Source: Psammoneis japonica (lineage: Eukaryota). From it: a DNA stretch of 26,667 nt. Of this stretch, positions 4,734 to 24,016 are shown piece after piece. Below the pieces are notes generated by a model. It searched no databases. It saw nothing but the letters and a program-made list of their open reading frames with translations, and was not told where the DNA came from. The DNA is taken from NCBI GenBank assembly GCA_008632985.1, contig QPGO01000174.1, positions 124,001 to 150,667 on the forward strand, in the 5' to 3' direction. The first letter of the stretch is position 1. Each line of letters begins with the position of its first letter. The position numbers and the translations under genes are program-made.

Positions 4734-5667
4734 AGATCAATTTTCTGAGCAGCAAAAGAACATGTGATTCAGCGTGGTTCCCCGACTGTTCACCATTCTG
4801 GAAAATAGGAAAACAAAACGCATTTTTGACAGCATGAAGTGTCATGTTTAATGTTGTTTGACAGCTTTTTTTTTCTGCAACCACTAAGATGCAAAATTGA
4901 AGCAACTTTAAAATGGTGCAAAGTGCCAAATAACAAAATTAAATAAATACCAAAACTAGACTATGCTGTTCAAGCTTTTTTGACCTCTACAATTTTGACA
5001 GCGTGCACCTTCAAAACTCGGGGATACAGCATTGTCAATGAAGACGCGGCACAGTGCATTTTTAGCGCGGGGAAAAGAAAAGAGTTGCCTCAACGCACGG
5101 ATGTTGTGCACGAAAATTAGGTGTGAGCATATCAAAGCCAAAAACATGCGCATTAGAAACAAATCTTTGCAGCTTTCACAACATTCCACGCGCCATTGGT
5201 TTTTCTGGAGCTCCAAATAAAAGCATCTTCTTTAACCATTGAAATGACTATGAGTACATTTTGTATTTAATTTTGACTCTTTACGTGTTCAAAGCATGTA
5301 GTCATTATTAAAAGATATATTTCTGACATTATTAATTTCGTATTGAAGTACGTCCAAATTAAATGCGAAGCGACAGTGCTTAGTTTGGGCCGGTAGACAC
5401 ATCAGATGTAGATGCCGGATCATGTCACTGCTGTCGAACAGTAGTGTTAGGACCTAATTGATCCTACGGAATCGGAACAGAAGTTAAACATTATGGTCTA
5501 TCTATCGCCAGTTCGAGCCAACATTTAGGGGAATGAACAAGGAGGCTAGTGTCCACATCTTAAGTGATAAATAATCTGAGACGAATGTAGAGCAACAAAA
5601 GACAATAGCAAGCTATTACATCTTTACCCAGCAACAACGGCTCCCACAAACCACACCTCCAATACAC

Positions 5668-5897
5668 TCAACGAGGAATGCAACTGGTTAAATGAAATTG
5701 CACAAGAAGGAGGTTATCGCTATCTTTTGGAATGGTTACAAAGTATACACACCATGACAGCAAAGGATAATCATGTTCAAAATCAACGAGGAATGCAACT
5801 GGTTAAATGAAATTGCACAAGAAGGAGGTTATCGCTATCTTTTGGAATGGTTACAAAGTATACACACCATGACAGCAAAGGATAATCATGTTCAAAA
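5668..5897 (+). repeat. Exact 115-bp tandem duplication
   Basis: TCAACGAGGAATGC...ATCATGTTCAAAA at 5668-5782 and 5783-5897, with no mismatch seen. Confidence 0.93.
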
Positions 5898-6353
5898 GAA
5901 GTTGAAAAGCACATAACAGTTAGATTATAGTTTTCATTGAATACAAAAAATACACACGTTCGGGAGGAAACGGTTAAGTCATTCTGCGTGCCAACACAAC
6001 ACGCATTTGTTTGACAGCATGAAGTGATTCATTCCACGCGTCAAACAGATTGCTACACTCCGCACACCATATGGATTGGTTTTATCCTTGTGCCCAGCCG
6101 TGTCCCAGAGCCGGTAAAAAAAAATTTCAAAAGAGATATCTTTGAAAAAGATAGCGATTTCGTTGTGAAACATAACAAACGCCAGAAAAAGCCTGAGATG
6201 GACAACCAAGCAAAATAAAAAAACACGTTTTTAACAGCATTCAGTCATGACCAAGCAAGCATGAAGTCCTGTTGACAGAAGCACTGTTTCACTGTTTACC
6301 TTTTTTCCGTACCCACGCAGTTGCCACATTAACGCAAAAATTTAATTGAGTAA

Positions 6354-7124
6354 GAGCATCTTCGCCAGTGAGTCGTAAACATAAACATAAACATAGGAAC
6401 ATAACCTAAAAGGACAAGCGAACAGACTGCCCGTATAAGTTACGATCTGCACGCGACCATCATTTTCAGTCGATCACAATCGTATCCATACACGTATATC
6501 AATAACTAACTGATGGTAGGACGACTTGTTGAATTTTACATGACGCCATGCGGCTTTGAACGCAATATACGACACAAATCACCGTCTATTCAAAGATATG
6601 TCGACGTCTATCAATAGAGAATAATTCATATTATATGTCTATGTGTTACTATGTTGTGAAAGTCATTCTACATCGCGAAAACAAGCGAAATGTTATCACA
6701 CGATTTATGCCTTATTCTCTTCTGACCCCATAAACCCCCCATATGTCGGTTCTCCTCCCATATCTCGATGCGGCCGTATGTAAGTTCATAAGATACGACA
6801 AAGTCTTAATTGTTGGGCCTCTGTAAGGTCCTCTCATCAAGAAAGCGTCGATTGTCGTTTCGTCATGGTGACACGCACTTTCTACAGGATTTCTACACCC
6901 TTTTTGTACCAGAAATTTACGATTTTCGTTTACGATTTTGGAGGTGGATCGTATCCAAGGCCTGATTTGCGATTCACTTTCATGAATCGTAAATTCGAAA
7001 AGGGTTATTAGCGCAAAAAATATGTTTACGATCCACCGAAAATGATGATTTTTTGTGAATCTCATTCGTATCGGAAGACGTACGGACATAGGTTTATGTT
7101 TACGACTCACTGGCGAAGATGCTC
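6354..7124. mobile_element. PIF/Harbinger (Tourist-like) non-autonomous element (MITE), 771 bp
   Basis: Perfect 33-bp terminal inverted repeats GAGCATCTTCGCCAGTGAGTCGTAAACATAAAC (6354-6386 and 7092-7124), flanked by TAA target-site duplication (6351-6353, 7125-7127). Interior is AT-rich with no credible transposase. Confidence 0.9.
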
Positions 7125-9539
7125 TAAAATACCAAAAATAAATAACAAAAATTTTCTATTTAAAAAATTTTGGCGTTTTCGACCCCTTCAATTTTGACCA
7201 ATGGCATTGCAAGCCCTCGGACAGATTTTGAACCTGAGGTGTGGACAACCGCAAAGAGATATGTGGAAAACACATCCGAGTGTCTAATCTTAATGTCTAT
7301 TGGCCGAAATATGGCTCTGAGATTGTTCTATTGGCCGAAATATGTTGAACTAAGTCATTCTATATTGTCCCGCGGTGCGGAAAAAGTTACAGGGTGGCTC
7401 TGAGATTCTTCATTGTCCTGACTTAGACATTTCGGACATAATGTTGCTTCCCTTCCAGACTCCTGTTTTATTCGCTGTGGCATGAATCTCTCCTGCGTGT
7501 GGTCGTTCGGAGAGTGAAACAATTCAAATTAAATCAGTAAGTTCCCATAAACTGTTGATCTTGATTCCTCTTGTGGCTGTTTTCCAAGCTATAATTAACA
7601 TGCCTTGCTTGTTGACAATCATCACGCTAATTTGGTCAGTCACACCAGTTAAGAACCGAGTTATCCTGCTGTGATTTTCAACAATTCACTTACGGAAAAA
7701 GAATGTTTCGGGAGGGGAAACATGAGAAATTTTCGACCCCTGATAAAGCATCGCTCTTCATTTTTAAAGCATATTTGGAATAACGCCTTGGTGTTGCACA
7801 CTATGTCAAAGCAAGTTGTTGTTGTCTTTTGCATTGTCATAATTCTACGGCAGCTACCCACCAATAACACCTACGTGTGTTTCTACGTGCGCTCCCTTAC
7901 TGATGTCGCATTTCGCTGGGTCTCCCAAGACCATTCTGGCCATTTCAACCAATGTCACACCCTTATTTCAGCATGATAATCAATGTTTCTCGGTGAAAAA
8001 GACTGGCGTCGATTCCTTATGGTTCGTATGCTCGTTGATTTTTTTCGTATTGTTTCTGCAGACTCAAGAAATTTTCTACACGGATTCTAGTACAAATTCT
8101 ACGCGCGACAGCAACAACCACCGACGACTGCTGTATCAACGCTCCGAACTACTTACGCCCATACCCATCGGTCCTCAATAACCTTCTTTATCTCCATCTG
8201 CCAATCAAGTGCTTCACTCTATTTGGTGAAAGTACCTCCTCTGTTGCGGCGCTGACGATCCAGTATGGTTTCTACACGAGACAATTGTTTTTTCAGATTC
8301 ATATCTACAAGACCTGTGCTACCTTACTTCTATCTACTGGCTAATCAAGCTCACTACCCTGAGTGGTGATCTTACTGTTCTCGCTACGATTCCTCGAGGT
8401 GTGCAAATAAGATGCCTCATGATGTAACCAACGTGTGCATCACCAGCAAGACTGCAGAAAACTCCAAGTGTTGTGTTCTCTGTTTCAACTGTTTCCGTCG
8501 GGCGTCTCATTCTGGAGGCGCCGAATCCGGCTAATCGCATGGTAGGGTGTAATGAAAGTGTGGGTTAGCCGGCGTCGGTGTTGCTGGGCAAAAGCGTAAT
8601 AGCACTTAAAATTAGGTTTGGGTTTTTTGTCTTTTGCATTGTCATTTTTTGTTAATCACTAGATTGAGAATAGTGCTTCTTTAACATAAACTAGAGAGCA
8701 TCTGCTGAGCATCTTTGTGCTTCTTGTCTTAGCATCGTCTACCTCGACATCTCCCTCACTATGACTTACTTGTGATTTCGTACTGGAAAGTATGATTGTT
8801 GACGGGAAAAACACGTGCTTGTCGCTATGGCACACAAAGCGTTAAGTTCACTTGAAATTTACAAAAAAGTTTTTGTCCTTTAATTTGTGATGAAGAAATT
8901 CCCAATCAAACCTGACAATTCTATTTTGGACGGAAGAGAGGCCGAAAATAGTCTTTTTGTTTCTCTTCTCTTTTGCGCTGCCTTGAGTGACGTTTGTTTA
9001 TGTCAGGATATTTAGGAAACATGAGACCACAAACGGGTCCCTGCTGCTTGGAATCCCTCATTCTGAATTCTTTACACCATCATGCCCAGCATGTCCATTA
9101 TTTGCAGCTGCACCCCGTTCTTGTTGTATGTCGTTCCCATGACAAACATCTACATCATACAGTCATGATTGACATTTTACAGCATCATGCAGAAGTGAGC
9201 ACAATGCCATGCAAGAGAGTGAGTGGAGCCAATAACTTTGCAGGAACTCAGTTGAAATGTCATCTGAACAAAGGCGGGTTTACTACCTTCGTGAGTTAAA
9301 AACAAGCTTAGCGTGGAGTTCATCTCGTGTTCCCTTGGTGGCGAGGGCACTGGAAAGGGGAAAGTGATAGGGAATTGCTTGAATCTTGTTGTTCGGGGTA
9401 AGGCAATGACTGAAAAGGTCAAGTTGTTACAAGAATTTGTTGAAGGCTCAGTGTCGGCCAGCAACAGGAGCGGCAACATCGGGGGCTTTCTGAACTTTGA
9501 CAGAGACGTTCTTGACACCACCGAGTTTGACAGTTTCGA

Positions 9540-10730
9540 ACTCGGCGTTTTCGGAAACGAGTTTCTCAGAGGTGGAGCTTGCGAAAAATGTGCTGTTGCG
9601 CTAGGCTATGTCGTTCGGTGCCATGTATCAGAGGCGGAGCTTGCGGAAAATGTGCTGTTGCGCCTTATGTCGTTCGGTGCCATGTAAAAGTGGGTTCTGG
9701 CGCGTTTCATTGCACGATCGGGTGTGAATATGATCAAATGCCACAGACCTTCTTTAATTGATTGAAACCGATGTTCTGATGTGACCAAAATAATGAAAAA
9801 TGCTATGAGCTAAAAAACATGCACGATGTCCTGATATTAGCAAAATAATGAAAAAATGCCAAGAGCTAAAAAACATGTAAGACCTGCTGAATGTTTGGGA
9901 GCATCATAAATCGACAGTCGGACACATTACTCGGTATTTTCGAAATCAAGTTTCTCAGAGGTGGAGATTGCGGCAAAAGTGCTGTTGCACGCATGTCGTT
10001 CGGTGCCATGTAAAAATGGGTTCTAGAGTTCGTTTTTTGTGCGCGATCGGGTGTGAATATGAACAATTTTTGCATTCAAAAATACTCCTTGATCAAATAA
10101 TGCCCTTCGTTGTGTCATGCGATAGACTGTTCGGCAAGGAAGCTAAGGCAATGCTCCGCAAGATAGCGTCGAAACTATCAGATAAGTGGCAAAAGCCATA
10201 TTCTGAAGTATGCGGCTATGTCAATGCGAGGATGAGTATATACCATAGTTCGGGCAACCCACCGTTGCCTCAGGGGATCCCGTATTCCCGCTTCTCAGAT
10301 CAGCTCCAGGCGACCCCAGTGGGGAGATGGCGCAGCTCTGTCCCTTTACAAACACTAAAAGGACCCCGATTCAATCGACCTCCACCCACCCGGACAGTAT
10401 ACCAACCGACTATCCACAGAGACTTTGATAATACGCCTAGAGAAGACAACAAAAACCTGCCATCATACTGAACACGGCGCCAGAATCAATTCGAATTTCG
10501 CGCGCACAGCCTACGAAATTGCGAAGGACCTACCCCTTATTCGTACGACTGCATTAACTATAATATCCACTTTCTTTTCTAATAATGCCACGGGACCCCC
10601 TTTAATTGAAACCGATGTCCTGAGATGAGCAAAATAATGACAAAAATGCCGACAAAAATGCCAAGAGCTAAAAAACATGCAAGCAAGACCTGCTGAATGT
10701 TTGGGAGCGTCATGATTCGACAGTAGTCGG
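9540..10730 (+). repeat. Two diverged copies of a roughly 390-bp unit with internal sub-duplications; copy 2 is interrupted by a retrotransposon
   Basis: ACTCGG..TTTTCG...GTTTCTCAGAGGTGGAG starts at 9540 and 9929. ATGTCGTTCGGTGCCATGTA occurs three times. GAGCTAAAAAACATG...AAGACCTGCTGAATGTTTGGGAGC at about 9863-9902 and 10665-10708. Confidence 0.88.
10105..10580 (+). mobile_element. 5'-truncated non-LTR retrotransposon (restriction-like endonuclease type, CRE-like C-terminus plus 3' UTR)
   Basis: Reads PFVVSCDRLFGKEAKAMLRKIASKLSDKWQKPYSEVCGYVNARMSI, then a 1-nt frameshift, then IVRATHRCLRGSRIP...WGDGAALSLYKH* (stop 10356-10358). This matches the typical RLE-element C-terminus. Flanked by direct repeat AATAATGCC at 10096-10104 and 10581-10589. 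Confidence 0.85.
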
Positions 10731-10967
10731 TCGAGGGCAAAGCCTCGGTTGGAAGGAGATGCACAGCTTCTGTGACCACGGTCCGAGCAGTGTCACGGGG
10801 TCAGGATCTGCCCAATGTGTAACTTTAATTAATTCTCCGTTTTGGTCCCCACGCACAAAGTTGGGTGCAAAAAGCAACCAGTGCTTGAGGCCTTGTTTGT
10901 TGACAGGATAGGGAGGTGGTGAAGTGACAGCTGGGTAAAAAATGCAGTTGTCAGTCCTATTATGGTT

Positions 10968-11057
10968 ACCTAGAGTGACCCCAAAAGGAGCTCATAGACC
11001 CGAGTGACCTCAGAGCCAGGGCGGATCGGTGTTGCGGCTAGCCCAAAGTAGCTTCAT
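10968..11057 (-). repeat. Duplicate of the last roughly 115 nt of the adjacent CDS, with a 29-nt internal deletion
   Basis: Matches 11068-11183 (GTGACCCCAAAGGAGCTCATAGACCCGAGTGACCTCAGAGCCAGGGC...GGATCGGTGTT.CGGCTAGCCCAAAGTAGCTTCAT). Confidence 0.92.
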
Positions 11058-11069
11058 GGTTAAGAGAAC

Positions 11070-13767
11070 CTAGTGACCCCAAAGGAGCTCATAGACCCGA
11101 GTGACCTCAGAGCCAGGGCTAAGCTGCTTGCGTGTCTCCTTGTTGACGGGATCGGTGTTTCGGCTAGCCCAAAGTAGCTTCATAGGAATACCACTAAGGA
11201 AGTGGTAAAAGTACTCATGAAAGCCATGCTTCTGCCACATGTGCACCTCAGCCGAAAAATATTTGACCTTGTCAAAAACACTGGAAGAGATCAAAGAACC
11301 CAAGAGCTCCCATTCTGCGCCCTCAACATCAAGTCGAAGCACATCAATTTTCTCATCCCCGTGTTCCTTCATCAGACTTTTCAAAGTCCGGACATTGTAG
11401 TTGGCGGCCTTGTTGTAAAGTGTCGTCTCGCCTTGATGCGCACCATCGTTAGGGCCAATGCCAATGGAGTAGAACCAGTGATTCTTACCTCGCTGGTAGG
11501 TCTTATATCCGTTTGATGGGTCAAAGGAGTAAACCGTGCAGCCATACTCATGAAAGAAATCATCAAAATCCCATTGATCGGCAATGCCAAAGGAGTACAC
11601 TGTGCAGTTGCCGGGAATGATGTCATCGAGACAGTACCATCTGGTGACAATCTTCTCGACGAATTCCTTTGTGTTCTGGCATGTTGGTTTTTTGGCTGTC
11701 TCCAAAAATGCTTTCATGTAATTGGTCGTGTTGACAGCAACGGTGGCAGACTTGGTTGCTAGGTTCTTGTCTAGTCGAAGAGAGAACCCGGCACGAAAAT
11801 TTTCAAACACAACCATGTCACCAGCCTTTGATCCTGGGGGGACGGTACAGTCAACAGCCAGACTCTTTTTCAAGCGGTTTTGGTGGACTTGATCAGTGAG
11901 CTCCACAGAATTTGAGTAGTTTCTGAATACAAAACTGTGGTAAAGATTGTATTCTGAGAATGCGTATTCGTGACCGTTGCGTGTGTACGGTGAGGGTTGA
12001 TCATGCGGAATGTTTGAGATTATGGTCTTGCTGCATTGAACCACATCGTTACGGTCTGTCAAAGAGTTGCCGGGACAAAGCACACCCAGTAGTCCATCGA
12101 GTTTGGCTGTTGTCATGCCAGCAAAGTGTGACACAGTGTCTTTACGGGGACTGGAATACCCTAAAAGTCCCGCAGTGGTGATGTGGTAGATGTTCTTGCT
12201 GGCGTGCGGCGCCGAAGTCGCAATCACCACCTTGCCCTCTTGCGTGATCAGATCAAATGGCGCCGTTAGTACCAAGTCAGCATCCCACAGGGCAAACGTG
12301 GAGGAGAGGGAAGGGCCAAGTAGTTTGTAAGCAAAAAGCTTGACAAATTGCTGGAGGTACCACCCAGCCCGGTCACCGAGCTTGGTCCAAGGATCACCCT
12401 TGGCTGCAAAAAGCGTTTGGAAATCCAAGTTGGTTAAAGGAACAACGTCTTGCTCGGAGTGACAGGCCGTCAACCCTGCCAAAACGTCGTCTGCGAAAAC
12501 ATTACGACACGTTGGGACAAGATGACGGGGTAGGATAAGATGGATGTTGCGGGGAGGAGGGTTGAGGTATTTCCGGAGATTCGTCGCAGTCCTTTCGGTT
12601 GCACAGTTGATTGCTCCGGCAACGATAACTACATCCATTTCAGCTGGTGGGTCCCTTTTCTTTTCTTCCTTGGCAACCATACACGCCTTTTGCTTCTCCA
12701 GTTTCAGAAACTGTTCGGCCTCGTTGCTTGTGTCTTTGTCATACATGTGACTGCCGAGGCGCCCACCCTGCGTTCGCATAAAATAGTTTCCAAAGATTTT
12801 ACCTTCAAGAGGAAGAGGCGTCAAACCAAAACGGTAGAGCGTATAGCACCACAGTGGCTGGTCTCGCCACGAATCCTGTTCTTGTTTGTATCGATCCCAA
12901 AAAAAATCCGATGCCTTTTGAAAATTAGGATTTGTGGGGTTGTAACCTACACAACGAAGCGAAAACAAAACTTCGAAAGTTAGCACTGTGGGAGAACGGC
13001 ACCACATTGCTGTCGCAGTTTCTCATATTGTACACACCAAAGAATGTATTCTGATAGAGCTGGCACCCCCAATCGAAGTCGGGCTGTTTCTCCAACCAGT
13101 TCTTGGTGGCGTCAATGTTTGACTGAATGTCCTTTTTGTATTCAACAATTTTGCGAAGCTCCTGTGCTAAAGGCCAGATGTGCTTTCTCTGAGCTAGTCC
13201 AGCATCACTTTGAAGGATTTTGTGACTTTGCTCCTGGAAATCTTGAACTGATCCTTTTGGCCCAATCACACCATCTATGTAAAAGACAACCGGGCAGTGC
13301 TTCTGTATCTCATAATCCTTCCACGCCTGAAACTTTGCGTATCGCGACTCGGTAATCATGCGCCTAAATCCAGTGTCGAAATACAGCACCTTGCTCCATC
13401 CGGGTGTTTTCAAATCGACCAAATTTGTATACAAGAAAAAGGCGTAATTCGGGTATCTGACTTTCCAGCTCGACGCATTGAGTGGCTTGTCGGACTGCTC
13501 CGAAGACAAACCAAAGATGCTGGAGATAAAGCACCCATCATAGGGTTTTTCAGGAGCTGGGTCCGTGAAAATTACTGTAGCATGCGGTTCCTCATGACAG
13601 AACAGACGCTCTTCGTTGGATTTGGGGGGATCTTTAGGCTGCACAAACGCCAGTTCCAGCTGCGACGAGGTAAGCCAGGCATCCCAGAACGCAGTCTTTA
13701 AAAGCGCGATGAGATGCATGACGACGAGCAAAGGCAAAATCGCCTTTCGAACTCCTCTGCCTGCCAT
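11070..13767 (-). CDS. Two-exon type-II membrane protein, about 868 aa: DUF616/TOD1-MUCI70-like glycosyltransferase domain, a second GT-A-like (DUF6492-like) domain, and a Methyltransf_22/METTL24-like methyltransferase. Exons 13767-13038 and 12946-11070
   Basis: ATG at 13767 gives signal anchor RKAILPLLVVMHLIALL. Splicing joins QNTFF-G-YNPTNP in frame. Domain 1 motifs: SRYAKF, FYIDG, SWRDQPLW. Domain 2 motifs: GWYLQQFVKL, LWDADL, FSEYNLY. Methyltransferase motifs: CTVYSFGIADQWDFD, YSFDPS, IDVLRLDVEGAEW, AEVH. Confidence 0.85.
12947..13037 (-). other. 91-nt spliceosomal intron, phase 1
   Basis: Donor GTGTGT at 13037, branch TGCTAAC at 12985-12979, pyrimidine-rich tract, acceptor TAG ending at 12947. 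Removal fuses the two ORFs in frame. Confidence 0.9.
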
Positions 13768-13935
13768 GTTAATTTTTCTTCTCAAATTAAGGGTTGCTTC
13801 TTTTGTGGAAGGATCAGTAATGCTTTCGATCAAGCAGTGTTCTTTGTCACAAAGCTAAAGCACAAAGCCTTGTTGTTTTTGCTGCCCCTCCCGTCTCACG
13901 CAGACACTGATGCGGCATGCGCACAATGCGAGGGG

Positions 13936-14080
13936 AGTACACTTTTCCGTTTAAACACAACGGAAAAATAACATCTTCGTCTCTTTGAAATCATTTTTTA
14001 ATGAAAAATCTACTGACTTGTTGATGTCTATGATGCGTGAAACTTCCAAAAAATTCAGTCATTTTTTCGGTCATCCTTGG
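13936..14080 (+). repeat. Third, TpA-retaining copy of the 1315-1640 repeat, between two divergently oriented genes
   Basis: CAACGGAAAAATAACATC..CTCTTTG, AAAATCTACTG and TGAAACTTCCAAAAAATTCAGTCATTTTTTCGGTCATCCTTGG align colinearly with the copies at 1336-1480 and 1492-1640. Confidence 0.8.
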
Positions 14081-14201
14081 GTCATCAGTCATCAGCAGTT
14101 CCCCCAGTGTGTCGCAGCTCGAGCACGGTCACTTCCAACTCCAAACTTCTCCAACCAGCGTTGAGCAGCTCCTCATTCGACTCTCGCTGTTTGATGTCAT
14201 C

Positions 14202-15194
14202 ATGGCATGGAAAGAAAGTTCTCTTGGGAAGAGCAACAAGTTCAAGTTGTCGTTGCTCGTGGCTGCAATCTTTCTGCTTGCCAGCACAACTCTCTCGTTC
14301 GTGGCTCCAACGGTTTGCGCCGCTGGGGCAGAGAAGACTGACAACACCACACCGCCGCCAAGCATTCAGGGATTCCCTAAAATGGCAATCATCAAACCAG
14401 AGTCTTGTGACAAGGCAGGATGAAAAGGCGTTCTTGGATTGGCGCATGACAGAGGCACATGGGTGCGCGGCCCTGGAGGAAAAATCTTGGGCAGCGCCGA
14501 GACCCATTGCTCACAGGCTCGCCAGCTGCCCAGAGAGTGAAAGTCACCTTCTGGGTGTGGCAGTGATCTTGGATGTGCCACAGAGGCGCTCATCTTTGCA
14601 GCTTCCAAAAGAAAGCACTCTGAAACATCGAGTCTCCGCTGCAGTGGTCGACACGCCGAGCGGCAGTGTCAACTGGATCTTTGAACCATGCGCGACTGGC
14701 TCTCTGAAATTTGGCAATTTCACTGTGCAACCATAGATTTTGACACCATTCCAACAAACTTTTTGCACTGTGGGATGGAGGAGCCACTTGTCCCATTGTC
14801 CCTTGTGGCAGCATGTGCTTGCAGATGGCAGCAATGCAAAGAGCCTGCAGCCACAGCCCTTTGACCTTGTTCGCACCCACGATGTCATTCAGCACATGCC
14901 CCTTGAAACTGGAGTGCAGTTTGTCTGCAATGCAGTCATGCTGGGGGCAAAGTGCCAGGTGGCCACCACACACAAAACAAAAGCTCCAAACAAAAACATT
15001 GCTCTTGGAGATTGGTGTGCAAAAACGACCTGCTGAAGCCACCCTTCAATCTCCCCAATGCAACAAATTGCATCCCGACTCATCCAGATGTGGAAAAGGA
15101 CTGGACTTGTCTCTGCCATTTGCAGCCAGCAACAGCCATCAACGAGTGGCTTTCAAAAAACCCTTGGTGTCACTCACCATTTGAGGAACAATGA
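14202..15194 (+). pseudogene. Pseudogene of a type-II membrane class I SAM-dependent methyltransferase
   Basis: ATG at 14202 and a TM segment (LSLLVAAIFLLA). Across stops and frameshifts it reads KSPSGCGSDLGCAT, VVDTPSGSVNWI, HHSNKLFALWDG, FDLVRTHDVIQHMPL, NAVMLGAKCQVATTH, NKNIALGDWC, NDLLKPPFNLP. This is the motif order of a methyltransferase family I recall as SGxGS...DxPCGDxNW...RDxxQH...PFNxP. Confidence 0.75.
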
Positions 15195-15369
15195 ACAGAT
15201 CCAGCCAGGGGTGCGGTGGGTTAAAGTTGCACATTGGGCGCTTGCCCTCACCCCACTTTTTTCCTGGATTTGCCAATTGCTCTCTGTGCAAAACACGCCA
15301 TTGTGCAAAACGACTGCCAGTCTGCTGGCTGTCACCCGCTGCAGCACAGCTGTTTTGGCATCAGTCTTT

Positions 15370-16040
15370 GCACCTTTCCTGGGCAACTGCCACTTCGAGC
15401 TGCTTTCGCTTTCTTTGCTTCTTCTGTGACTTCTTCTGAAGCTCATTGCCGGGCCCCCGGAGGTGGGCATTTTCACATGTGGGTTCAAACGAGCCCTGCG
15501 GACCAAAAGTGGATCCTTGCCTTTGACGTCTTGGCTCTTCTTTGTTTCCTCTGATGACACAATCTCTTGTGTTGCAGCAAATGGAGCACAAACTGGTTGT
15601 CATGACTCTGCCCCTCCCCTTGGTCCACAAGCTTTGGCTGGGTGCAGCAGGTCGATTCGACAAAGTCGAGCTTCCTCTTAGCGACAAAGCCAGCAACTGA
15701 CACCTTGTTGCCGCAGACACATCCGCTCTCCACCCAGCTCTCAAGAAGTTCCTTGAAATGCTCTTGATTTGGCATGCTCCCTTGCCAACACCATGCTTAG
15801 AATGGGTGCACCTGGGGGGCCGCAAGAATCACATGTGACAGTGGCTCGAACCTCAGATGCCATGAACAATTGTCGGTGTGCCCTGTTGGTCTCCGTTGCT
15901 TTCACATAGATTGCTTCTCTTTGGTGTCGTTTTTCGCATTTGGGAGAGATCTCTTTAGCAGCTCGTCCAGAGACAAGTCAGACTTGTTGATGTACGCTCT
16001 CATCTTTTCCGGCAACAGGAAGTGATCCTTGTTGGTAAGA
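15370..16040 (-). pseudogene. Frameshifted Cys-rich remnant resembling the C-terminal region of a DNA-transposon protein
   Basis: Stitched frames read KDHFLLPEKMRAYI...VRATVTCDSCG/PRCTHSK...ESGCVCG...VESTCC...LCSICC...GKDPLLV...PTSGG...KRKQLE. The CxxC-xPRCxY...YxCG...ExxYY...CxxC layout is one I associate with transposase C-termini. Superfamily not determined. Confidence 0.45.
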
Positions 16041-16515
16041 TTCATTGCATTTACGCCAGGCCTTTTGGGACTTTCCATCCATCGTAAAATAAACATGGAT
16101 GCGAACAAAATAGCCAAGCTGCCCTGTTGACAATGTCTTGAGCATGTAGTCACTGTAATTGTCTTTATTTTTAGCACTTGTATTGCCGTCTGCACTTATT
16201 GCACTCCTCCCTGCTTTACTGTTCGCATTCATCTCACTCCCATTGTCGGGGCCATTGCCATCTGACTTCTTTCCTCTTTCGATTATCGTGCCAAGCACTG
16301 CTTTCGGTTCCTCTTTGAAATTGTCCATGCAGCAAGTTTCTTATGCTAGAGCCTTGAACAATTGAGACAATTGCCCTCTGCCACTGTGTGCTCTCCCCCG
16401 ACCAGTTGGAGTGAGAAAAGTGGGTTCTGCCAAATGGATGCTTGTTCTGTCGTGAGGAAATTGAAAACTTTCCAGCTTCTTATTGTTGTCGAGCACTTGC
16501 TTGCCATGGATGCTG

Positions 16516-17601
16516 CTACACCAGGAGGCGCATTGCCTCGTCCGGACAGGTGAGCAGGGCCTTCCCCAATTCCCTCGTTCGGCCCTGGCAAGACGCCTTC
16601 TTCCTCGTGTTCAACGTCCACTCCAGCACATGCTGCTTCGCCTCCAGCCATTCATCGAGTGTCACCATGGTAGCGTTGCTGTTCATTGCCTCTGCCAGCC
16701 GCACCCACGTTGTCATCCTGGCCTTCTTCTTATTCAAGTGCTTCGCGTCCAGGTCCGGGCAGTGGTGCCTGGAGAGCAGCCCCTGGAGCCGGTCCACTTG
16801 TGTGTAATGTAGGAAGACGAGGTTTGGGAGGTTGTCCTTGACGGCCTTGTAGAGGTCGCACGTCAGTACCTCATGGTTTCCCCAACCGAGTTCTGACCTG
16901 CGGGGCACAATCACCCGCTTGACGAGGTTCGCCTCATCGACGACGCACTCCTGCGGCGAGCCATCCTCCGACGACTTCGTCGTAGGGGCGGACACGACGA
17001 CCAGGGGGTCGCGGCCATTCTCAAAGTTCTTGCAGTGCCGCGTTTCGACGACAAACCGGATCGCCGAGATGAGACGGTCCGTTTCGTGGCGGTACACGAA
17101 AACAACCAGTGAGCCGTCGGCGATTTTCGACATTGAGGAGGGCATGTGCTGCATCAGGTGGATCATAGGCTCGTCCAGCTTCACGTGCGATGCGACGACC
17201 CTCTGCGGTATGAGCGAATTCGTCAAGAACGCCATCCTGTCCCGGTCCTCTGCGACGACGTTTTTCACCTGCAGTTGCTGCGGAGGGTGACCCATGCACG
17301 ACTGCACGAAGTGCTTCAGCGTCGTCCCTGCCGCCTTGGACGGCATCGTAATGAACAGCTGCCCCCTCCTCGAGATGATCTCGTCCAACTCATCGTCGAT
17401 CGACAAGCACTGGTACAGTTGTTCGCTGCCCCGTCCTGCTCCCTGCTTTGCAACCCTCCTGCCACCAAAGCCGTCGTCCGTCGTCGACGAGAAATCCGAA
17501 TCTTAAAGAGCACCGCCGGGAGTGCTCCAGAGCCTCGCCGCGGACAAGACAACTATGACCAACATGGCGATGCGCACTCGCTTGTGTAGTCCCACCGCCA
17601 T
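16516..17601 (-). pseudogene. Sulfotransferase-like type-II membrane protein gene with one in-frame premature TAA (17505-17503)
   Basis: ATG at 17601 and a TM segment (IAMLVIVVLSAA) are in frame with ORF 17406-16516 across a single stop. FITMPSKAAGTTLKHF resembles the 5'-PSB loop, and VFVYRHETDRLISA resembles the 3'-PB motif of PAPS-dependent sulfotransferases. Confidence 0.7.
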
Positions 17602-18018
17602 TGTTCGTTGGTGGCGCTTGTCAATCTCCTTTCGGGTGGTTCCTTCGCTGCAAGCAACGTGTTTGTGTCGACATTTGACATTTGCCATGCACTGCTCTAG
17701 CTAGCAGCAGAGCACCAGCCACACGCCTTGCCTGCACGTACAGAATGTAAGTTTAATGCGGTCATTCAGCAGGTCACAAAAATGACTGGCCTCGTGTAAA
17801 GACCGACAAGGGAGATGACCTCATCACCAGTTGATGACGCAACTGAAAATCATTCCCCGCATCACCATCATTGGACGCGTTCAGTTGGCTTTTGGAAGCG
17901 AGCTGCTTTGCTCATTCTTCCAAAGAGTTTTAACAGCAAGCCAAATGGACAGTCTAAAGTGCCATCTTGTTCGGCGGAGGATGCCATCTGCCGCTGTGTG
18001 GGTGAACCTCGCAGGGCC

Positions 18019-18540
18019 ATGAGCCAGAGCGGAGCCACTGGAAGAGCCCCACAACAAGGAGCAGCACAAGCAGCACAATGACTGGGAGCCATTGGGAATC
18101 AACCCCTGGCACAAGCTGCCAATGATGCGCCAAACACTGGAGGTGCACAGCCCATGCCGCCGGCGCCAGCACACCCAGCTGCAGGCGCCGTGCCAGGAGT
18201 GGCGGCACAGCAGGGTGCGCCGCAATGAGCGCAGCCGCCCAGTGCACCACAACAGCTGGTGCCACCAGTTCATGCAATGGCCGCTGAGGACCCGTGCCAT
18301 GGGAGCCACACAGACATCATGCAAGATTTTGTGGTCCCGACACAGGGACAGTCGCGGCACAACCCAGGTGTGCTGAGAGACCACGTTGGAGCAGCGTTTG
18401 GGCATGACCTGCCTGTGGCACTCGTGTGGAAATGTGGGGCACAAGGTGGGAACAATGCTGGGGTCCTCGAAGTGTTTCACTGCACTGCACAATGCCCGCA
18501 TCAGAGGCCACAACACAGTGTTGTTCACTTTCCTTTGGAA
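18019..18540 (+). pseudogene. Degenerate Pro/Ala/Gln-rich ORF fragment, probably transposon-derived
   Basis: A single frame reads MSQSGATGRAPQQ...*...*...EDPCHGSHTDIMQDF...LPVALVW...LEVFH with two TGA stops, inside a TpA-depleted block. Family not identified. Confidence 0.35.
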
Positions 18541-18953
18541 AATTTGGACATTTGTTTTGACAATTGTGCACAAAAATTGGTGACAGCTCACTTGTTTTTT
18601 GACAGTCAATTTACATTTGTCATTGCCGTTTTATGTTGGCAATTGTTGCCATTTTATTTTGCTTTTAAGTTGCCAAAGAATTTCAATGAGCCCTTTGTTG
18701 TTGAATGGTGCTTTTTGTTTTGATCAATTTTTCACATGTTTGTGGAATCGTCAACTTTGACAGTGCTTTTCAATGGCTTCACCGCAGCCTTGCGTCACCA
18801 CAGACAATGGCATTTCTCCCTCGCCCCAGTCAGCCACGCAATTGCCCAGAGGAACACCATCTCATTGTTTCCACCTGCACGCTCCAGTTGTCCAGTCAAT
18901 GGGCCCCTGCCTGCATTTTGGTGCCTTTTCTACATGCGCAGTTCTCCACCCAT

Positions 18954-19012
18954 TTCACAACAGTGCACCCTCTCCCCAAAATGCTTTTGACGAGAGGGTG
19001 CACTGTTGTGAA
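18954..19012. other. Perfect 21-bp inverted repeat (hairpin)
   Basis: TTCACAACAGTGCACCCTCTC (18954-18974) is the exact reverse complement of 18992-19012. The spacer can pair further (CAAAA/TTTTG). Confidence 0.92.
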
Positions 19013-19052
19013 TCCTGTGCATTCTACGTGAATCGGCAACTGACTGTTGGCC

Positions 19053-22000
19053 ATGGCATCTGACGACTTTGCCCCGTCTGACGACGAGGTCGACCCTGAC
19101 CCTTCTTTCCAAATTACCGAGGACTTAAATTTTGATGAAATGGAGTGTTTCACCAACGGTTTTGGATTCGAATTGTTCCAACCCAAGCTCAAAAGCACAC
19201 TGCAACGCGTGCCTCGAAAAAGAAGTTTTTGGAGTCGACGAATTGGACCCCCTCTCCAGAATTCCTCGCTCTTCCCTTCCTTTGTCACAAGCCGAAGTTG
19301 CGCCGTGTTCCTCATGTTGCCGAAGTTATCCACACCAACAATGTTGCAAGGAAAACCCTTGGCTATCCCGACATTTGGCCCCACATCATGACTCGTGGTT
19401 GGTCCATTGAGAAATCCCGCCGTGCGAAAGGCGAACATGTCCTGCGACACAAAAATCTCGAGGAGGCTCTGCATTTCTCCAAAACATCCGGAGAGACAGA
19501 AAAAGAACAGCATGACCGCATGCTTCTTCACCGTAACATCCAGGTGATGGTGGAATTTGTTTGTGCGATCATCACCGGAGATGACCCAAATGATCCTTTA
19601 TCCGGCAAGCCTTGTTTCCGATTTTTGCGGTGCAAAAGTCTCCAAAGTTTGATCAACGATCAAGCCCAAGACCTCCACAGTGCCCATTTTGTCACTGACA
19701 TCGTCATGCGTTACGTTCAGTGCAAGCCCAAGGACATGGACTGTTGGTTTTTGAAGATTTTCCATCACGTCAAAACCCAAAAGGAATGGCGCCTCTTTGT
19801 TGATGGCTTTCTGGTTGTGTGTGACACTGACGATCCTGGTGCCCAGGCGGATGAGATCAAGGGGTTCCTTGACGACTCAACCGGCAACATGAAGAACACG
19901 GTGACAATGCAAGGCGATTCCCTTGCATGCCGTGAGGCTCATGAAGAAAAAATCAATTCCATGTTGAATCACGAATTTGGGAAGCGTTGTCCCAAGGAGC
20001 AAATTGGCATCCGACCTGGGCACAGCAAGCAGCTCACAATGCTCCATTGCAGAATGCGTGATCAGAGGGCCGGCTGCTTGGAAGATGACAATGAACAAAT
20101 CTACAACTCCAAAACCAAACGCAAAATTAGGAGGACCCGCAAGGATGGCACCTGTTTGTACGATGGCAAGAACCCCCCCCCACCTCCCGCCTTCTGCCTT
20201 TCCGCCTGCATCTGTCGTCTCAATGTCTCTTCTCACACCCCATGATTGTTCACGACCCACCAGAGCCTTCCTTGACCATTCCCAACAAGAAGGCCAAGCC
20301 TGCATCTCGCAATGAACAAGCCCCTCCATCGCTTTCTGGCAATGTTCCGTCGTCTGGGGAGGCGCGCCGGACTCTCACCACCGACCTTCCGTCACTCTCA
20401 GAAATTGTGGAAAACCCAAAACCTGCTTCTACCTCCAAAGGTCCTTCATCCAAACCTCATTCCTCTCCTCCTTCTGTTTCAGCCAATCCTCCTGCAGTTA
20501 CGTCTCCTCCTGGTGACCCTGACGACATGTCGTGGCTGGACCTGTCCACACTCCGCGATCGCTTTGACCCGTCTGAGTGTCGACCCGTCACCACCGAGGA
20601 AGTTTCTTCTCATTTGTCACACCTGCACATCATTGACAAAGCCACCGACACTGATCGGGTGCTTCATCATTCTGCCGCCGACTTTTGCCTGGCGGGTGAC
20701 TTGCGGGAAAACTGGCACACATTCTCAAACAATGCGCCATTGTGTGATTCCGCCACCGCATCTCGTGTTCGAACCGAGCACCCTCCTGACCTTGATCACT
20801 TCTCCAAGGAACTCTCCGTCGCCCATCAGGCTAACTCTCTGTACAAGGGGCACTTCGGGTGCCTTCGTGCATGCATTTCTGCCCTTCTTCTGTTTGTTTT
20901 GTTGAAGGGAGAGTCCGATTTGACACGTGACGGACCGGTTGCAGTTCAAAACGGCGAAGCACGCAGGATAAAGTTCGGTTGTGCTGGGAGAGCACATCAC
21001 CCCAAGACGCCTGGTTCTGCCAAACTGGCTAAACCAAAGGCCACTTACGGACTTGATGTCTTTGAGTCCAATGACAACTTTGACGCCAACAAGACCTCCA
21101 AAATCAAGGCGATGGCAGCCGACATCCTTGACTCGATTCAGCTTTGCGAAAATGAGGTAGAGCTGAAAAAACTGAGCAATCCACCACCATTTGACTGGTC
21201 ACTTCGGCACGAGGAATGCTCGCAAAAGTTGGGCAACGAAATGGGCTGTCTCTTCTTCAAACGTGAGGACGCCACTGTGCAGGGATTGTGCATTTCCGGG
21301 GTCAAGTCTGTGATGGTCACCATGACAATAAAAACTGCACCTGGCGTCGACATGGGAAGACAGCTGCCGGTTGCTTCTTCATTGTGGATGCCTTTGGCGA
21401 CATCTGGTCCTTCAAGGTTGTTGCCAACAGCAGAAGGACCATTGGTGAATGCCACGATGACCAGTGCGACATGAAGCCTGTGCTTGCTCGCATGCACCAC
21501 AATCGAGCTCAGCTTGATTTTGCACTTAAAGACTTGGACTTGCAGCATGATGGTCCCACCCACCCCGATGTGTCGCTTTCCAGCATTACATTCAAGCATC
21601 TTTCCCTTGACAACAACAGGCCGTGGGACAATGTTCTCATTGGTGGAGGTGGCGACTCTTCACATGTCGAGGTGTGCATGGATCGACTCAAGTTCCCGAC
21701 TTTCCCAGTCAGGGACTTCCACTTGTCTGCCCCAGTCACAGTGATCTGCCGTTTCAAGAACATTGTGTGCCGATCGGGTCCCGACCCAAAACGAGTCATT
21801 CGTTTGGCAATCCATGCTGGTTGTCCCACCGGATGTCACCGATTTTACTGCATGGGGGACAAGTGTCTTCCCAACCTTTGTTGCAAAGGTGCTGACCCGT
21901 TTGTCAACTTTGCCGATTGCTTGCAGAACACATTTGGGGTGCCATGCGGTGACCCACAGGTGGGTGGGATCAGCCCCACCAATTTGACGTACGAGAAATT

Positions 22001-23069
22001 TTGCGATGCATTTCTAGACCCTTGTTGCGTCGGAACCGCGAATGACCTAATTGACGCAATGGTGGAAGAAATCTGTGCTGCACTTCTCTGGATAAACAAC
22101 AACGTCAACACCAACGAGTTCTGTCCCAACTTAATGGAACAACGGTGCAAGGCAGCGTGTGATGCTTGGGCAGACCGGGGAGCAGATTTCAGTGAGATTC
22201 ATCTCATGTTGGTGCTGCAATGTCTGGTGCTGGCAGGTGTCGCAGTGAAAGACCATCCAAGACTCAATGACATCATCTGTCCTGTCTTCAATTCGGGAGC
22301 TGCCGCACAACTGGGGCATGTTCAACCGGAAGAAAGGCCGCTCATGCACCAAAGGATGTCATCTGAAACAGGAACCGAAGAGCACGGTTGGAACGGAACC
22401 GAGCACAAACTTTGTGAGAATTCAGACAATTGCTGCACCTGTGTTTTTGATCATGTTTTCCAAGGACCCTGTTCAGGACAAGACCTGTTTACCTTCTCTC
22501 CCTCTGGGCAGTGTCTCCGCAAGCCATGTGGGTCAACCGAGTGTGAAATTTTGGAGTGTGTTGACGACGACCCCAACCTTTGCCAATCACAAGACAATGC
22601 TGAATCGCACACATTTGTGTGTGAATCAGCCGTGCAATCAGATGGTGCCAGTGTTTTCTCTGCTGTTGATGGACTGCCCGCGTACAATGAACTTAGCTCA
22701 TTGTCATCGGAGGAGTCTAGACTCACCGCAAACAATGAACTTAGCTCATTGTCTTCGGAGGATTGTCAATTTGACGCGGAGAAAGAACTAAGTTCATTGG
22801 ATTCGGAGGAGTCTCGACTCGCCGCAGACAATGAACTCAGCTCATTGTCTTTGGAGGAGTCTGTGTTGTCGGAGGACTGCTCGTGTCCTGATTCTGACTG
22901 CCGCGTTCCAATTGTCATGGTAGATTCTGTTGTCCTTCAGTCGCAGGATCAAGAATCCGATGAAGATGACACAAGCAATGCAACCGCGTGCGATCGACCC
23001 GAGCCACCGGTCCTTTTACAAGCACAAGATTTTGACATGGACAAACATGTGAATGCCATTTTTGAGTGA
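19053..23069 (+). pseudogene. Long frameshifted cargo ORF with unknown N-terminal domain, Pro/Ser linker, HxDxxN-containing domain, helical domain ending ExxLCE, and acidic tail
   Basis: ccATGg at 19053 (MASDDFAPS...). The protein-like reading passes through ORFs 19145-20245, 20242-21474 and 21288-23069, with apparent frameshifts near 19210, 20180-20240 and 21300. Cys/His-rich and Tyr-poor. Confidence 0.6.
22686..22862 (+). repeat. 48-bp coding tandem repeat, about 3.7 units (NELSSLSSEESRLTAN-like)
   Basis: Units start at 22686, 22734, 22782 and 22830. Confidence 0.92.
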
Positions 23070-24016
23070 GTCCATCAACAGCCGAAGAACTCCCACAATT
23101 GTTTGGTGTCATGTTTTTCACAAATCTCAACCCGCAACATGACTCCTCCTGTGCTTTTGTTTCACATTGTCATGTCATCCCCAGACAAGATGGAGGTGCA
23201 AATGTCCTGTGGCTTTGCATGACGAGGCCCGTCATGGCCGGAAACCTGACATTAGATGAGATGTGTTCAGACCGTGGCGTGGAAGCTGTCCGATCCACTC
23301 AGCAAAGAAGAGATGAGGCAAGGTGTCAAGTCGTTCAGGATCTCCACACGAACTCAAATGTTCGTGCATGCACTGTGTCCCTGCAGGATGGCAGCCCCGC
23401 TTGTCACTTGAGTTGCAACATGTCCGCCAAGAATTTTGCCCAAAGGGTCAAGACGCGGTTTGGAACAGTGATTGATTTTAAGAAAAGTGGCTTTGTTCAG
23501 ATCTGCATGGACTGCTGCTGGATGCAAAAAGGGGAGTGGCTGCAGTCGACACTCGGAAATCGCTTCTTTGGCGAAAACCTGAGGGATGTGATGGAAACGT
23601 TGTTTCATCCAAAGCTCCAGAGGTGCCGCATCATAATCCCGTGCACCATTTGGTCACTGACCCAAACCGTGCACAACTTGGATGACATTTTGGAGTGCGC
23701 ACTGGTGCAGGCCATGACACAGGACATGGCACATGAAACAGTGACGCTCCACCAGGCTTCCCAGGAGATCATGGAGGAGCACCGTGTGGATTGGCTGGGA
23801 AAACCATCTGCCCAGGAAGCATTGCATTTGGGAGTCACGGAACAGGAAATTCGGGAAACGCTGCCACATGAAGAAGCTGATTCAGTCCCAGAGTTCCTGC
23901 GAGAGTGTGGAAATTACAACCCGAAGGAACCATTCCCGTTCCTGTCCTTTGACAGGAGAATTCCTGATTTTGGGGATGAGTTAAGGAAATGGCCTGGGAG
24001 TTGTTTGCTGTGCTAG
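23066..24016 (+). pseudogene. Decayed cargo ORF, 316 codons, possibly the frameshifted C-terminus of the upstream ORF; possible Rossmann/methyltransferase-like fold
   Basis: Open frame ending in TAG, with alternating strand/helix pattern VLWLCM...RDEARC...CTVS...HLSCN...FVQICMDCCW...IIIP. Only one Tyr in 316 aa. Confidence 0.5.

Follow-up and report, generated by a model that had tools for sequence, protein, structure and literature searches.

The one report of TpA-only hypermutation in a nuclear genome is a 2026 preprint (Mettrop et al., bioRxiv 10.64898/2026.01.13.699255), which deals with the chlorarachniophyte Bigelowiella natans. According to the main text of this preprint, all 230 A/T to G/C mutations of two hypermutable regions were on TpA, and the genome carries 124 TpA-depleted clusters. 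The hypermutation was measured live and was tied to integrated viruses, and an ADAT2 homologue was put forward as the candidate. When we searched the literature for TA-specific hypermutation or TA-depleted repeats in diatoms we found no report, and the only relevant work was this preprint. Among better-known processes, RIP of ascomycete fungi produces region-limited, context-specific transitions of repeated or silenced DNA that leave a dinucleotide scar and dead genes, as at the locus described here. The same transitions in RIP run in the opposite direction: CpA goes to TpA, TA is enriched and stops are created, while the process seen here takes away TA, and stop codons with it.

The locus lies in a diatom-like genome (that of a stramenopile, judging only by the names of relatives), and carries a scar of the B. 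natans kind near saturation. The whole stretch of DNA analysed (the window) was 26,667 bases long, and its relevant features, in window coordinates, are the following.

1 to 1520, no strand: TA-poor block (4 TA in 1520 bases, observed/expected (o/e) 0.05), ending between tandem copies of an upstream element
1892 to 3787, plus strand: intact Methyltransf_22 gene of another family (Pfam, 9.4e-15), used as a control
12928 to 13767, minus strand: divergent neighbour gene, intact and with normal TA, of 280 codons counted from an ATG at 13767 (open reading frame list; TA o/e about 0.5)
13960 to 14085, plus strand: upstream element of about 150 bases (self-blastn and alignment)
about 14030 to 15800, no strand: TpA-poor, CpG-poor, TG/CA-rich island (edges within 50-100 bases)
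14202 to 14390, plus strand: 5' part of the relic, a start codon and a hydrophobic signal-anchor-like stretch (translation)
14391 to 15170, plus strand: body of the relic, family-homologous and read in three frames (profile-to-DNA alignment)
15290 to 15849, no strand: two-copy repeat piece at the 3' end of the island (contigs of sequencing run X1)
17900 to 26667, no strand: TA-poor high-copy repeat, class unassigned (62 TA in 8768 bases, o/e 0.12)

We observed by dinucleotide counting that the island holds 5 TA in 1771 bases (o/e 0.05). Over the 993 bases of 14202-15194, described as nearly TpA-free in a sequence-only reading, there are indeed 2 TA (o/e 0.03). In the intact genes between 11070 and 13767 we counted 91 TA in 2698 bases (o/e 0.50), and at this rate about 59.7 TA would be expected in the island (Poisson P = 8e-20). 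TG and CA were both raised (o/e 1.60 and 1.59, versus 1.24 in the intact genes), and CpG was lowered (0.47 versus 0.79). Since the AT, AA and TT steps were not depleted (o/e 0.75, 1.38 and 1.28, respectively), a general drift from AT to GC is excluded. Taken against the genic o/e, the deficits of about 46 TA and about 38 CpG compare with an excess of about 79 TG plus CA. With 167 TG and 184 CA in the island, both strands were affected.

The TA loss was confined to a region, as in the B. natans type: the island is placed between the TA-normal gene (0.5) and the DNA at 15850-17750 (TA o/e 0.40, CpG o/e 0.92). On the left, the final TAs at normal density are at 13999, 14011 and 14029, so that this edge falls within or just past the upstream element; on the right, normal TA density returns at 15907. 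The island extends from about 170 bases 5' of the ATG of the relic to about 600 bases beyond its stop. Terminal repeats were sought at the island edges, and gave short, chance-level matches only. The TAs that survive avoid ATA/TAT. An independent X1 contig matches 13000-15849 with 6 other letters, and the island is therefore no assembly error.

The relic was aligned to a profile of 31 sequences by a frameshift-aware protein-profile-to-DNA alignment. The alignment (score 305.7) spans columns 63-312 of 312, with four frameshifts (near 14589, 14728, 14807 and 15019) and three on-path stops, all of them TGA (14421, 14538 and 14741). The single frame from 14202 has five internal TGA, which is about the count expected of any TA-free DNA frame. 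A HMMER search of 1.84 billion representatives gave 45 relatives at E <= 1e-3, the best at 1.3e-11 for 14617-15033, and tblastn with one relative (P0059) matched the relic at E 1.4e-25 in two frames. The homology is thus real and the gene dead, as the earlier description of a methyltransferase pseudogene had it; the single frame in which it was read has given way to three. At the region matching 14202-14390 the N-termini of the relatives are variable, and the 20-residue hydrophobic stretch after the relic start was judged 'signal-anchored' by eye.

Named members of the relic family are diatom proteins, including an Attheya transcriptome protein, and members occur on contigs of up to 877 kb. 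P0059 has 78 relatives, and 355 related stretches were seen in metagenome contigs. The sequence-only reading had proposed a comparison with an intact paralogue, but the closest orthologue or paralogue in the searched collections has only about 34-38% identity, and the window holds no second member of the family. The relic as a copy of the neighbouring genes was rejected, as tblastn with the intact transferases of the window found no match.

All three plus frames of 14077-15400 were scanned with Pfam and NCBIfam at E <= 10, and no match to the relic was seen (a CRPA match at 0.027 was spurious). When the relic piece served as query in a word-indexed search of proteins, 245 candidates came up, none of which was scored. 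The changes from Tyr to Cys/His mask the homology from the family models, and Pfam is blind to the relic. Methyltransf_12 was matched by 10 of the 15 relatives tested, at 17.9-29.0 bits, all under the 30-bit cut-off of Pfam, and precomputed listings give PF08242 or PF13847 for some relatives. Judged from these relatives and not from the relic itself, the family is probably one of SAM methyltransferases.

How much of the damage is due to TA loss was evaluated at the conserved columns. The relic keeps 83 of the 128 non-Tyr consensus columns. The family-invariant PCGD is PSGS in the relic, and the equally invariant R-D-x-x-Q-H is not intact (Arg to His), both of which agree with a dead gene. Among 33 mismatches at conserved columns, 4 were one-step TA losses, 5 were CpG losses and 24 were other changes, so TA loss accounts for a minority of the visible damage. 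Stop codons and indels cannot be made by TA to TG/CA changes, which remove stops instead. The gene, said earlier to have been wrecked by the same process as the transposons, does carry the TA-loss signature, but its frame was broken by indels and TGA.

The conserved Tyr codons were more informative. None of the eight Tyr-dominated columns (Tyr >= 40%) keeps Tyr: seven have Cys or His (codons at 14445, 14508, 14626, 14812, 14971, 15016 and 15114) and the eighth has Phe. The three changes to Cys and four to His are interleaved along the relic. In comparison to the other consensus columns this loss is significant (0/8 versus 83/128 kept, P about 2e-4). The 330 codons of the single frame have no Tyr, 22 Cys and 16 His; the corrected path of 321 codons also has no Tyr, with 4.7% Cys and 3.7% His, the family averages being 3.3% Tyr, 2.3% Cys and 3.3% His. 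The relic is therefore Tyr-free on either path, as first read. Cys/His do occupy the places of aromatic residues at seven of the eight Tyr columns, although the peptides that had been quoted for this stem from different frames. Reverting TG/CA to TA generally raised the profile score in 16 of 94 cases, versus 22 of 124 for the same changes elsewhere (Fisher p = 1.0). This test being null, the protein-level support comes from the Tyr columns and a few others.

The control gene at 1892-3787 (56 relatives, the named ones diatom) keeps TAT at 4 of 5 Tyr-consensus columns, and 128 of its 154 other consensus columns are kept. We also examined 80 related loci (337 kb), where none of 1071 1-kb windows had a TA o/e below 0.15, versus 36 of 103 here. 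TA loss is thus no trait of the gene family.

CpG decay accompanies the TA loss in the island, as had been noticed from the sequence. At 14878 the relic has CAC where all 31 relatives have Arg (CGC to CAC), and 16 of 100 CpG reversions raised the profile score, versus 7 of 136 controls (Fisher p = 0.007). An origin of the TGA stops from CGA had also been suggested. For TGA 14538, on a column with Arg in 20 of 31 relatives, this is well supported by the alignment, and for TGA 14741 (Arg in 5 of 31) it is plausible. TGA 14421, the third on-path stop, is on a variable column and may or may not have come from CGA.

As for the surroundings of the relic, the ATG of the neighbour (13767, minus strand) is 435 bases from the ATG at 14202, and this neighbour is intact and TpA-normal, both as previously stated. 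It has no Pfam match; an atlas feature match to DUF1647/TOD1_MUCI70 at 0.92 suggests, as a lead only, a glycosyltransferase-like protein. The upstream element is common to 1333-1485 and 1489-1640, which are upstream of the signal-anchored gene at 1892, and one of its sites is CA, TG and TA in the three copies.

The high-copy repeat begins at about 17.6-18.5 kb, and from 18472 on the summed contig depth is 830-4186, versus a baseline of about 59. Its copies show at least four adjacent double differences, with TG here and CA in the others or the reverse (40 of 960 differences listed). Like the CA, TG and TA site of the upstream element, these differences speak for a process that acts on the DNA of each copy separately. 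Searches for its identity over 17.7-26.7 kb (six-frame Pfam, PDB sequence and atlas) were empty and gave no confirmation of a transposon. Six-frame Pfam on 15170-17700 and 1-1900 gave no match, and neither did scanning the whole window for Rfam families and tRNAs. Contigs of run X2 (a run whose kind was guessed as DNA) cover only 13036-13826 and 16192-17504 and none of the relic, which says nothing on expression.

The likeness to B. natans, as described in the preprint, covers several points. In both cases the changes are solely TpA to TpG or TpA to CpA on both strands, they occur in kilobase-scale blocks where TA is lost and CA plus TG are gained, and transposon-type and unannotated sequences are among the TA-poor blocks. 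The differences lie in the host (a chlorarachniophyte there), in the depletion (o/e 0.05-0.12 here versus 0.45 for the B. natans viral insert) and in the target, which is here a single-copy relic of a host-type gene that has undergone CpG decay as well. The surviving TAs here avoid ATA/TAT, and the words 'flanking', 'trinucleotide' and 'context' do not occur in the main text of the preprint (its supplementary tables may hold such data). We saw no viral or foreign target here: the relatives include a protein from a diatom transcriptome and members on long eukaryotic contigs, and the searches of the island and of 15170-17700 gave neither viral nor transposon domains. The preprint does report host-like Pfam domains among the TpA-depleted coding sequences, and a foreign target may therefore not be the defining feature. 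The claim that a host-type gene shares its TA to TG/CA signature with the repeats in the window is supported, the family having a member in a diatom transcriptome and others on contigs of up to 877 kb.

The other processes resemble the scar in part. 5-methylcytosine decay fits the CpG o/e of 0.47 and the CGC to CAC and CGA to TGA changes, but it covers no more than about half of the TG/CA excess and leaves the TA loss entirely unexplained. RIP, besides the likeness given above, is linked with cytosine methylation, which we list as shared with the present case, and also with the sexual cycle; RIP acts on duplicates, and here no dependence on duplication was detected (single-copy at >= 80% likeness, in the contigs of one run). 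ADAR hyperediting and the TadA/ADAT-type deaminases share the A-to-G change with a 5' U/T neighbour; by contrast, what we see is a genomic scar that affects either strand of the DNA at a non-mobile, single-copy locus.

We consider it likely that the relic is a single-copy, dead, host-type methyltransferase gene within an island rewritten by a region-limited TpA to TpG/CpA process together with CpG decay. The ancestral gene would have encoded an N-terminally anchored protein of about 300-340 residues, from a class-I-like SAM methyltransferase family in which the members with names come from diatoms. Together with about 600 bases on its 3' side, the relic would have passed, as a 1.8-kb island, through regional TpA to TpG/CpA mutation, with conversion on both strands almost to saturation and ordinary CpG decay alongside. 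The high-copy repeat and two further blocks of the window carry the same signature. The expected residue changes would be Tyr to Cys/His, ATA-Ile to Thr/Met, CTA-Leu to Pro and GTA-Val to Ala, and the frame was broken by the four indels and by TGA stops of the kind that arise from CGA, not by the TA process. The process may act on DNA where it stands, within a silenced and probably cytosine-methylated domain of chromatin and irrespective of where that DNA came from, and may be TpA-only hypermutation of the same kind as in B. natans, the identity of mechanism being an analogy. Chemically, it could deaminate adenines, preferring those with a 5' T, or modify thymine at TpA so that it mispairs. 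The TpA changes are read from inferred, not observed, ancestors; the TA o/e, the Tyr columns and the TG/CA differences between copies support them indirectly.

What nucleated the domain is the sole point on which the nearest alternative, which otherwise overlaps with the preferred explanation, differs. Here the target would be the two-copy repeat at 15290-15849 (e.g. a transposon fragment or a solo terminal repeat), from which silencing and TA hypermutation would have spread about 1.2 kb to the left, up to the promoter of the gene. We regard this as a real, though lesser, possibility. The piece belongs to the island and stops at 15849, within about 50 bases of the right edge, the left end of the island is near the upstream element of the relic, and the rest of the TA-poor DNA in the window occurs in many copies. 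However, the piece has just one other copy (a second contig, matched in reverse orientation with 67 differing letters and 21 gaps, i.e. about 85% likeness) and no recognisable transposon domain, and CpG decay peaks in the gene body (o/e 0.21-0.36 at 14501-15250, versus 0.47 over the repeat piece). Spread from neighbouring transposons, as proposed from the sequence, gains no support from the about 1.9 kb of TA-normal and CpG-normal DNA between the island and the high-copy repeat; since the two-copy repeat forms the 3' end of the island, it could still be a local source. A trigger by duplication in the manner of fungal RIP, which would call for a near-identical paralogue once present, seems unlikely. 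The family is multi-copy in diatom-like genomes, going by the relatives of P0059 and the metagenome stretches, and the window's repeats bear the signature. Nevertheless, one X1 contig at the baseline depth of 59 covers 13000-15849 (matches at >= 80% likeness), and no second copy of 13000-15289 at >= 80% likeness was seen in 141 million letters of X1 contigs, where gaps prove nothing. As TA and CpG sites are less than about 10% of positions, an intact partner should still exceed 80% likeness, although an older one may have been lost. The window has no paralogue, and the tandem 150-base copies at 1333-1640 are split, with one in the TA-poor block and the other outside. The earlier claim that duplicated sequence is targeted is accordingly unsupported.

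Equally improbable, in our view, is that a mobile element or integrated virus brought in the relic, which was then hit as foreign DNA. Transferase genes are often carried by the large DNA viruses of algae, and the repeat piece adjoins the gene. The tie to viral inserts in the B. natans preprint would fit as well. The relatives, however, come from a diatom transcriptome and from long contigs of eukaryotic size, the locus is among signal-anchored transferase genes and shares its upstream element with one of them, and the domain searches of the island and of 15170-17700 were empty of viral and transposon domains. RNA A-to-I hyperediting (ADAR-like, with a 5'-U preference) followed by reverse transcription to a processed pseudogene would account for an island with roughly the extent of a transcription unit, but we give it very little weight: editing of a single strand yields TA to TG alone, and the relic shows both products equally, in its TG and CA counts and in its Tyr to Cys and Tyr to His changes. 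Both outcomes also occur at one site across repeat copies, and the shared upstream element argues for a native promoter region. Least credible of all is that there was no mutation process and that TA was avoided by selection, by codon usage or by chance in GC-richer DNA. TA is indeed under-represented throughout the window (o/e 0.4-0.9). The gene is nonetheless dead (four frameshifts, three stops, PCGD to PSGS), the island has sharp edges, and none of the 1071 control windows was as low; the replacement of conserved Tyr codons by exactly the two TA-loss products refutes it.

The finding extends what is known from the one preprint in that an ordinary host-type gene, a single-copy relic, carries the scar. 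If this holds genome-wide, the process would be older or wider than one lineage, and its target would be better called silent chromatin than foreign DNA. The relic itself offers a clean natural assay, as the conserved Tyr codons report the process. Since TA-free DNA is without TAA or TAG, it gives long false open reading frames, and several frames of 300-600 codons are seen in the window. In a broader and tentative proposal, which we think more doubtful than the preferred explanation, a TpA-specific hypermutation system would be common to distant SAR algae (the rhizarian Bigelowiella and a diatom-like stramenopile). It would be directed to chromatin domains that have been silenced and not to foreign sequence as such, would prefer TA with a 5' A or a 3' T, and would irreversibly rewrite any silenced gene. 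If true, such a system would serve as a chromatin-guided 'lock' on silencing and mirror RIP: silenced genes, host genes included, would lose every Tyr codon and their TAA/TAG stops, with stop-poor long open frames as a by-product.

The relic, a dead methyltransferase-family gene copy at 14202-15194, matched none of the family models in any forward-strand frame, and a word-indexed protein search with it found no match. When the piece of one frame at 14617-15033 was run through a full HMMER search, 45 proteins passed E <= 1e-3 (best 1.3e-11). Most have 250-400 residues, and it is their central and C-terminal parts that align. With one of these relatives as query, tblastn gave E 1.4e-25, divided between two frames. 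A profile from 31 relatives was aligned to the DNA with frameshifts allowed, which gave the following layout.

14202 on, + strand: 5' part of the relic, a start codon and then a hydrophobic anchor-like stretch, upstream of 14391
14391-15170, + strand: homologous body of the relic

We observed four frame changes on this alignment (near 14589, 14728, 14807 and 15019) and three stops on its path, all of them TGA (14421, 14538 and 14741). The sequence-only reading had called a pseudogene with TGA stops. The dead relic stands, as this homology establishes, but the single frame was wrong; its five internal TGA are about the expectation for any frame, since TGA is the sole possible stop in TA-free DNA. 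The peptides quoted from it were genuine family motifs, although drawn from different frames. The family-invariant PCGD is PSGS in the relic, and an Arg conserved in 31/31 relatives is His. Class I SAM methyltransferase is the probable identity of the relatives (Methyltransf_12 matched 10 of 15, every one under the Pfam cut-off). Among them, the only informative organism names are those of a diatom, on a transcriptome protein from Attheya, and of Alexandrium, the label of one scaffold; contigs that carry some of the members are 311 and 877 kb long.

The intact genes beside the relic have relatives with diatom names too. On the strength of such names, the genome is provisionally described as diatom-like. 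Two long minus-strand ORFs there, 11070-13007 and 12925-13833, are in different frames and share 83 bases. The upstream one has an anchor and a glycosyltransferase-like lead (DUF1647/TOD1_MUCI70, high atlas confidence), and the downstream one a weak DUF6492 match (under cut-off) and Methyltransf_22/21; a single gene interrupted by a short intron or a frameshift may account for the pair. The AT-rich, TA-normal middle of the window carries a perfect 115-base tandem duplication at 5668-5897 (100% identity).

Dinucleotide counting found 2 TpA in the 993 bases of the relic, so its earlier description as nearly TpA-free was accurate. The surrounding TpA-poor island (~14030-15800) has 5 TpA in its 1771 bases, an observed/expected ratio (o/e) of 0.05, while the ratio of 0.50 in the intact genes at 11070-13767 predicts about 60 (Poisson 8e-20). 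TG and CA o/e rise to 1.6 and CpG o/e falls to 0.47. The AT, AA and TT steps are not depleted, and the composition is therefore not a general drift to G+C. Compared with genic frequencies (arithmetic on dinucleotide counts), the island has a deficit of ~46 TA and ~38 CG and a surplus of ~79 TG+CA, so that the two losses together roughly match the gain. An independent contig from the public sequencing run X1 was identical over 13000-15849 save 6 letters; the pattern is therefore not an assembly artefact. One TA/TG difference between the assemblies is at 13429, in the intact neighbour gene, where the X1 contig has G and the window A within a TA step (GTGTA vs GTATA). The dinucleotide profile gave further TA-poor stretches.

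1-1520: TA-poor block
within 3000-3600: milder TA-poor stretch
17.9-26.7 kb: TA-poor stretch

TA o/e was below 0.15 in 36/103 of the 1-kb windows here, as against 0/1071 (minimum 0.20) in 80 metagenome loci of relatives (337 kb). The TA signature belongs to regions of this genome, not to the methyltransferase family.

On the coding strand, Tyr to Cys is TA to TG, and Tyr to His is TA to CA. At the eight profile columns with at least 40% Tyr, the relic has His four times, Cys three times, Phe once and Tyr never, while it retains the non-Tyr consensus at 83/128 columns (P ~2e-4 for 0/8 Tyr). Cys and His had been reported where aromatic residues are expected, and 7 of these 8 columns bear this out. 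The two kinds of site are interspersed along the relic, and TG and CA are balanced in the island (167 and 184), so both strands were hit. Three more Cys/His lie at columns with Tyr among the leading residues, a Pro at a Leu column is consistent with CTA to CCA, and Val reversion at 14933 (GCA to GTA) raises the profile score. Counting against this reading, blanket TG/CA to TA reversion gave no advantage (better score in 16/94, vs 22/124 for the same base changes elsewhere); most of the relic's TG and CA steps have evidently been there from the start. In the control, the intact Methyltransf_22 gene at 1892-3787, 4/5 conserved Tyr are still TAT. Its 3' part, 3000-3611, has TA o/e 0.17-0.29 (3307-3611 is without TA). 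This depletion resembles a selection-limited or chance effect rather than the full process, since conserved Tyr codons are kept there.

CpG decay does co-occur with the TA loss, as had been proposed: besides the low island CpG, TG/CA to CG reversion raised the score in 16/100 cases vs 7/136 control changes (p = 0.007). An origin of the TGA stops from CGA fits 14538 (Arg column in 20/31 relatives); at 14741 Arg occurs in 5/31, and the 14421 column is variable. Where consensus reaches 60% or more, the relic has 33 mismatches: one step of TA loss explains 4 of them and one step of CpG loss 5; a further 17 are other single-step and 7 multi-step changes. The TA process struck the relic yet explains a minority of its visible damage. 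It removes TAA and TAG, and stop codons and indels are beyond its reach. To say that the same process wrecked the gene is therefore correct only in part, since the signature is present but the stops and indels were otherwise made.

Surviving TAs in TA-poor DNA (1-1520, 14030-15800 and 17900-26667) were compared with those of normal DNA (3800-13767). Survivors shun a 5' A or 3' T (ATA/TAT in 12/71 vs 233/482, Fisher p = 3e-7); ATAC/GTAT numbered 0 vs 63 and ATAT 0 vs 30. The process may thus prefer a context wider than TA itself, or new TAs may arise in a biased way. Products are skewed by strand at 501-1250 (TG o/e 1.9-2.1 vs CA 1.2-1.5) and at 18251-18750 (CA 2.1-2.2 vs TG 1.5-1.6), unlike the balanced relic island. 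The large repeat, high-copy DNA at 17900-26667, has open frames of 300-600 codons, and Pfam, PDB and atlas searches gave it no identity; these frames may merely reflect the absence of TAA and TAG.

Between X1 copies of this repeat and the window copy, transitions predominate (725 vs 235 places). The best 40 of 960 differences include four adjacent doubles in which TG of one copy corresponds to CA of another, three places with TG in the window and TA elsewhere, and one with TA in the window and CA elsewhere. The doubles are as expected from one ancestral TA resolved independently per copy. Likewise, one site reads CA, TG and TA across the three copies of a ~150-base element, which may act as a common leader or promoter, or may be a small mobile element.

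1333-1485, 1489-1640 and 13960-14085: ~150-base element, upstream of the intact gene at 1892 and of the relic at 14202, both signal-anchored transferase-type
20574-20575, 21208-21209, 23732-23733 and 26552-26553: TG-vs-CA doubles
15290-15849: two-copy piece; a second X1 contig, on the opposite strand at ~85% likeness, is restricted to it

RNA editing followed by retrocopying is disfavoured as the origin of the relic, because one edited RNA copied back to DNA would give a single outcome, TG or CA, and both occur, and because the relic shares its upstream element with gene 1892. As to what is targeted, duplicated or silenced sequence had been proposed. At 80% likeness or more, a single X1 contig (baseline depth 59) covers 13000-15849, while summed depth rises to 830-4186 from 18472 onward (tens of copies). 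This filter should let through an intact partner whose differences are confined to TA and CpG sites, so the relic is now single-copy, as seen in one run's contigs, where missing cover proves nothing. No other family member was found in the window, and the TA-poor block 1-1520 terminates between the tandem element copies, leaving one within and the other beyond. These results give no support to targeting of duplicated sequence, and targeting looks domain-wise rather than homology-wise. Spread from neighbouring TEs had also been suggested. Simple contiguous spread from the large repeat is unlikely, since ~1.9 kb of normal DNA (TA o/e 0.40, CpG o/e 0.92) intervenes, but nucleation by the two-copy piece is a live alternative, as this piece is the island's own 3' end and stops at its right edge. 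The left edge lies at the ~150-base element, found also as the tandem pair upstream of the anchored gene at 1892.

As to mechanism, the favoured view is that the DNA of a silenced domain is modified in place. This would happen either through adenine deamination that prefers a 5' T and acts on both strands, or through thymine modification at TpA causing mispairing. According to a 2026 preprint (Mettrop et al., bioRxiv 10.64898/2026.01.13.699255), two integrated viral regions in Bigelowiella natans mutation-accumulation lines mutate ~1000-fold faster than the remaining genome, nearly exclusively by A to G and T to C and always at TpA; 124 genomic clusters are TpA-depleted and CA+TG-enriched, and its authors suggest a deaminase of the ADAT2 type as the agent. 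Set against that account, our scar is the same in kind, whereas the host lineage differs, the depletion is deeper (o/e 0.05-0.12 vs 0.45), the target is host-type and single-copy, and CpG decays alongside. Repeat-induced point mutation (RIP) of fungi is the mirror image, as it creates TA and stops. We found no account of such TA-specific hypermutation in diatoms in the literature. By analogy, the relic locus would belong to a very recently described kind of hypermutation; what makes it of interest is the lineage in which it occurs and the host-type nature of the target.
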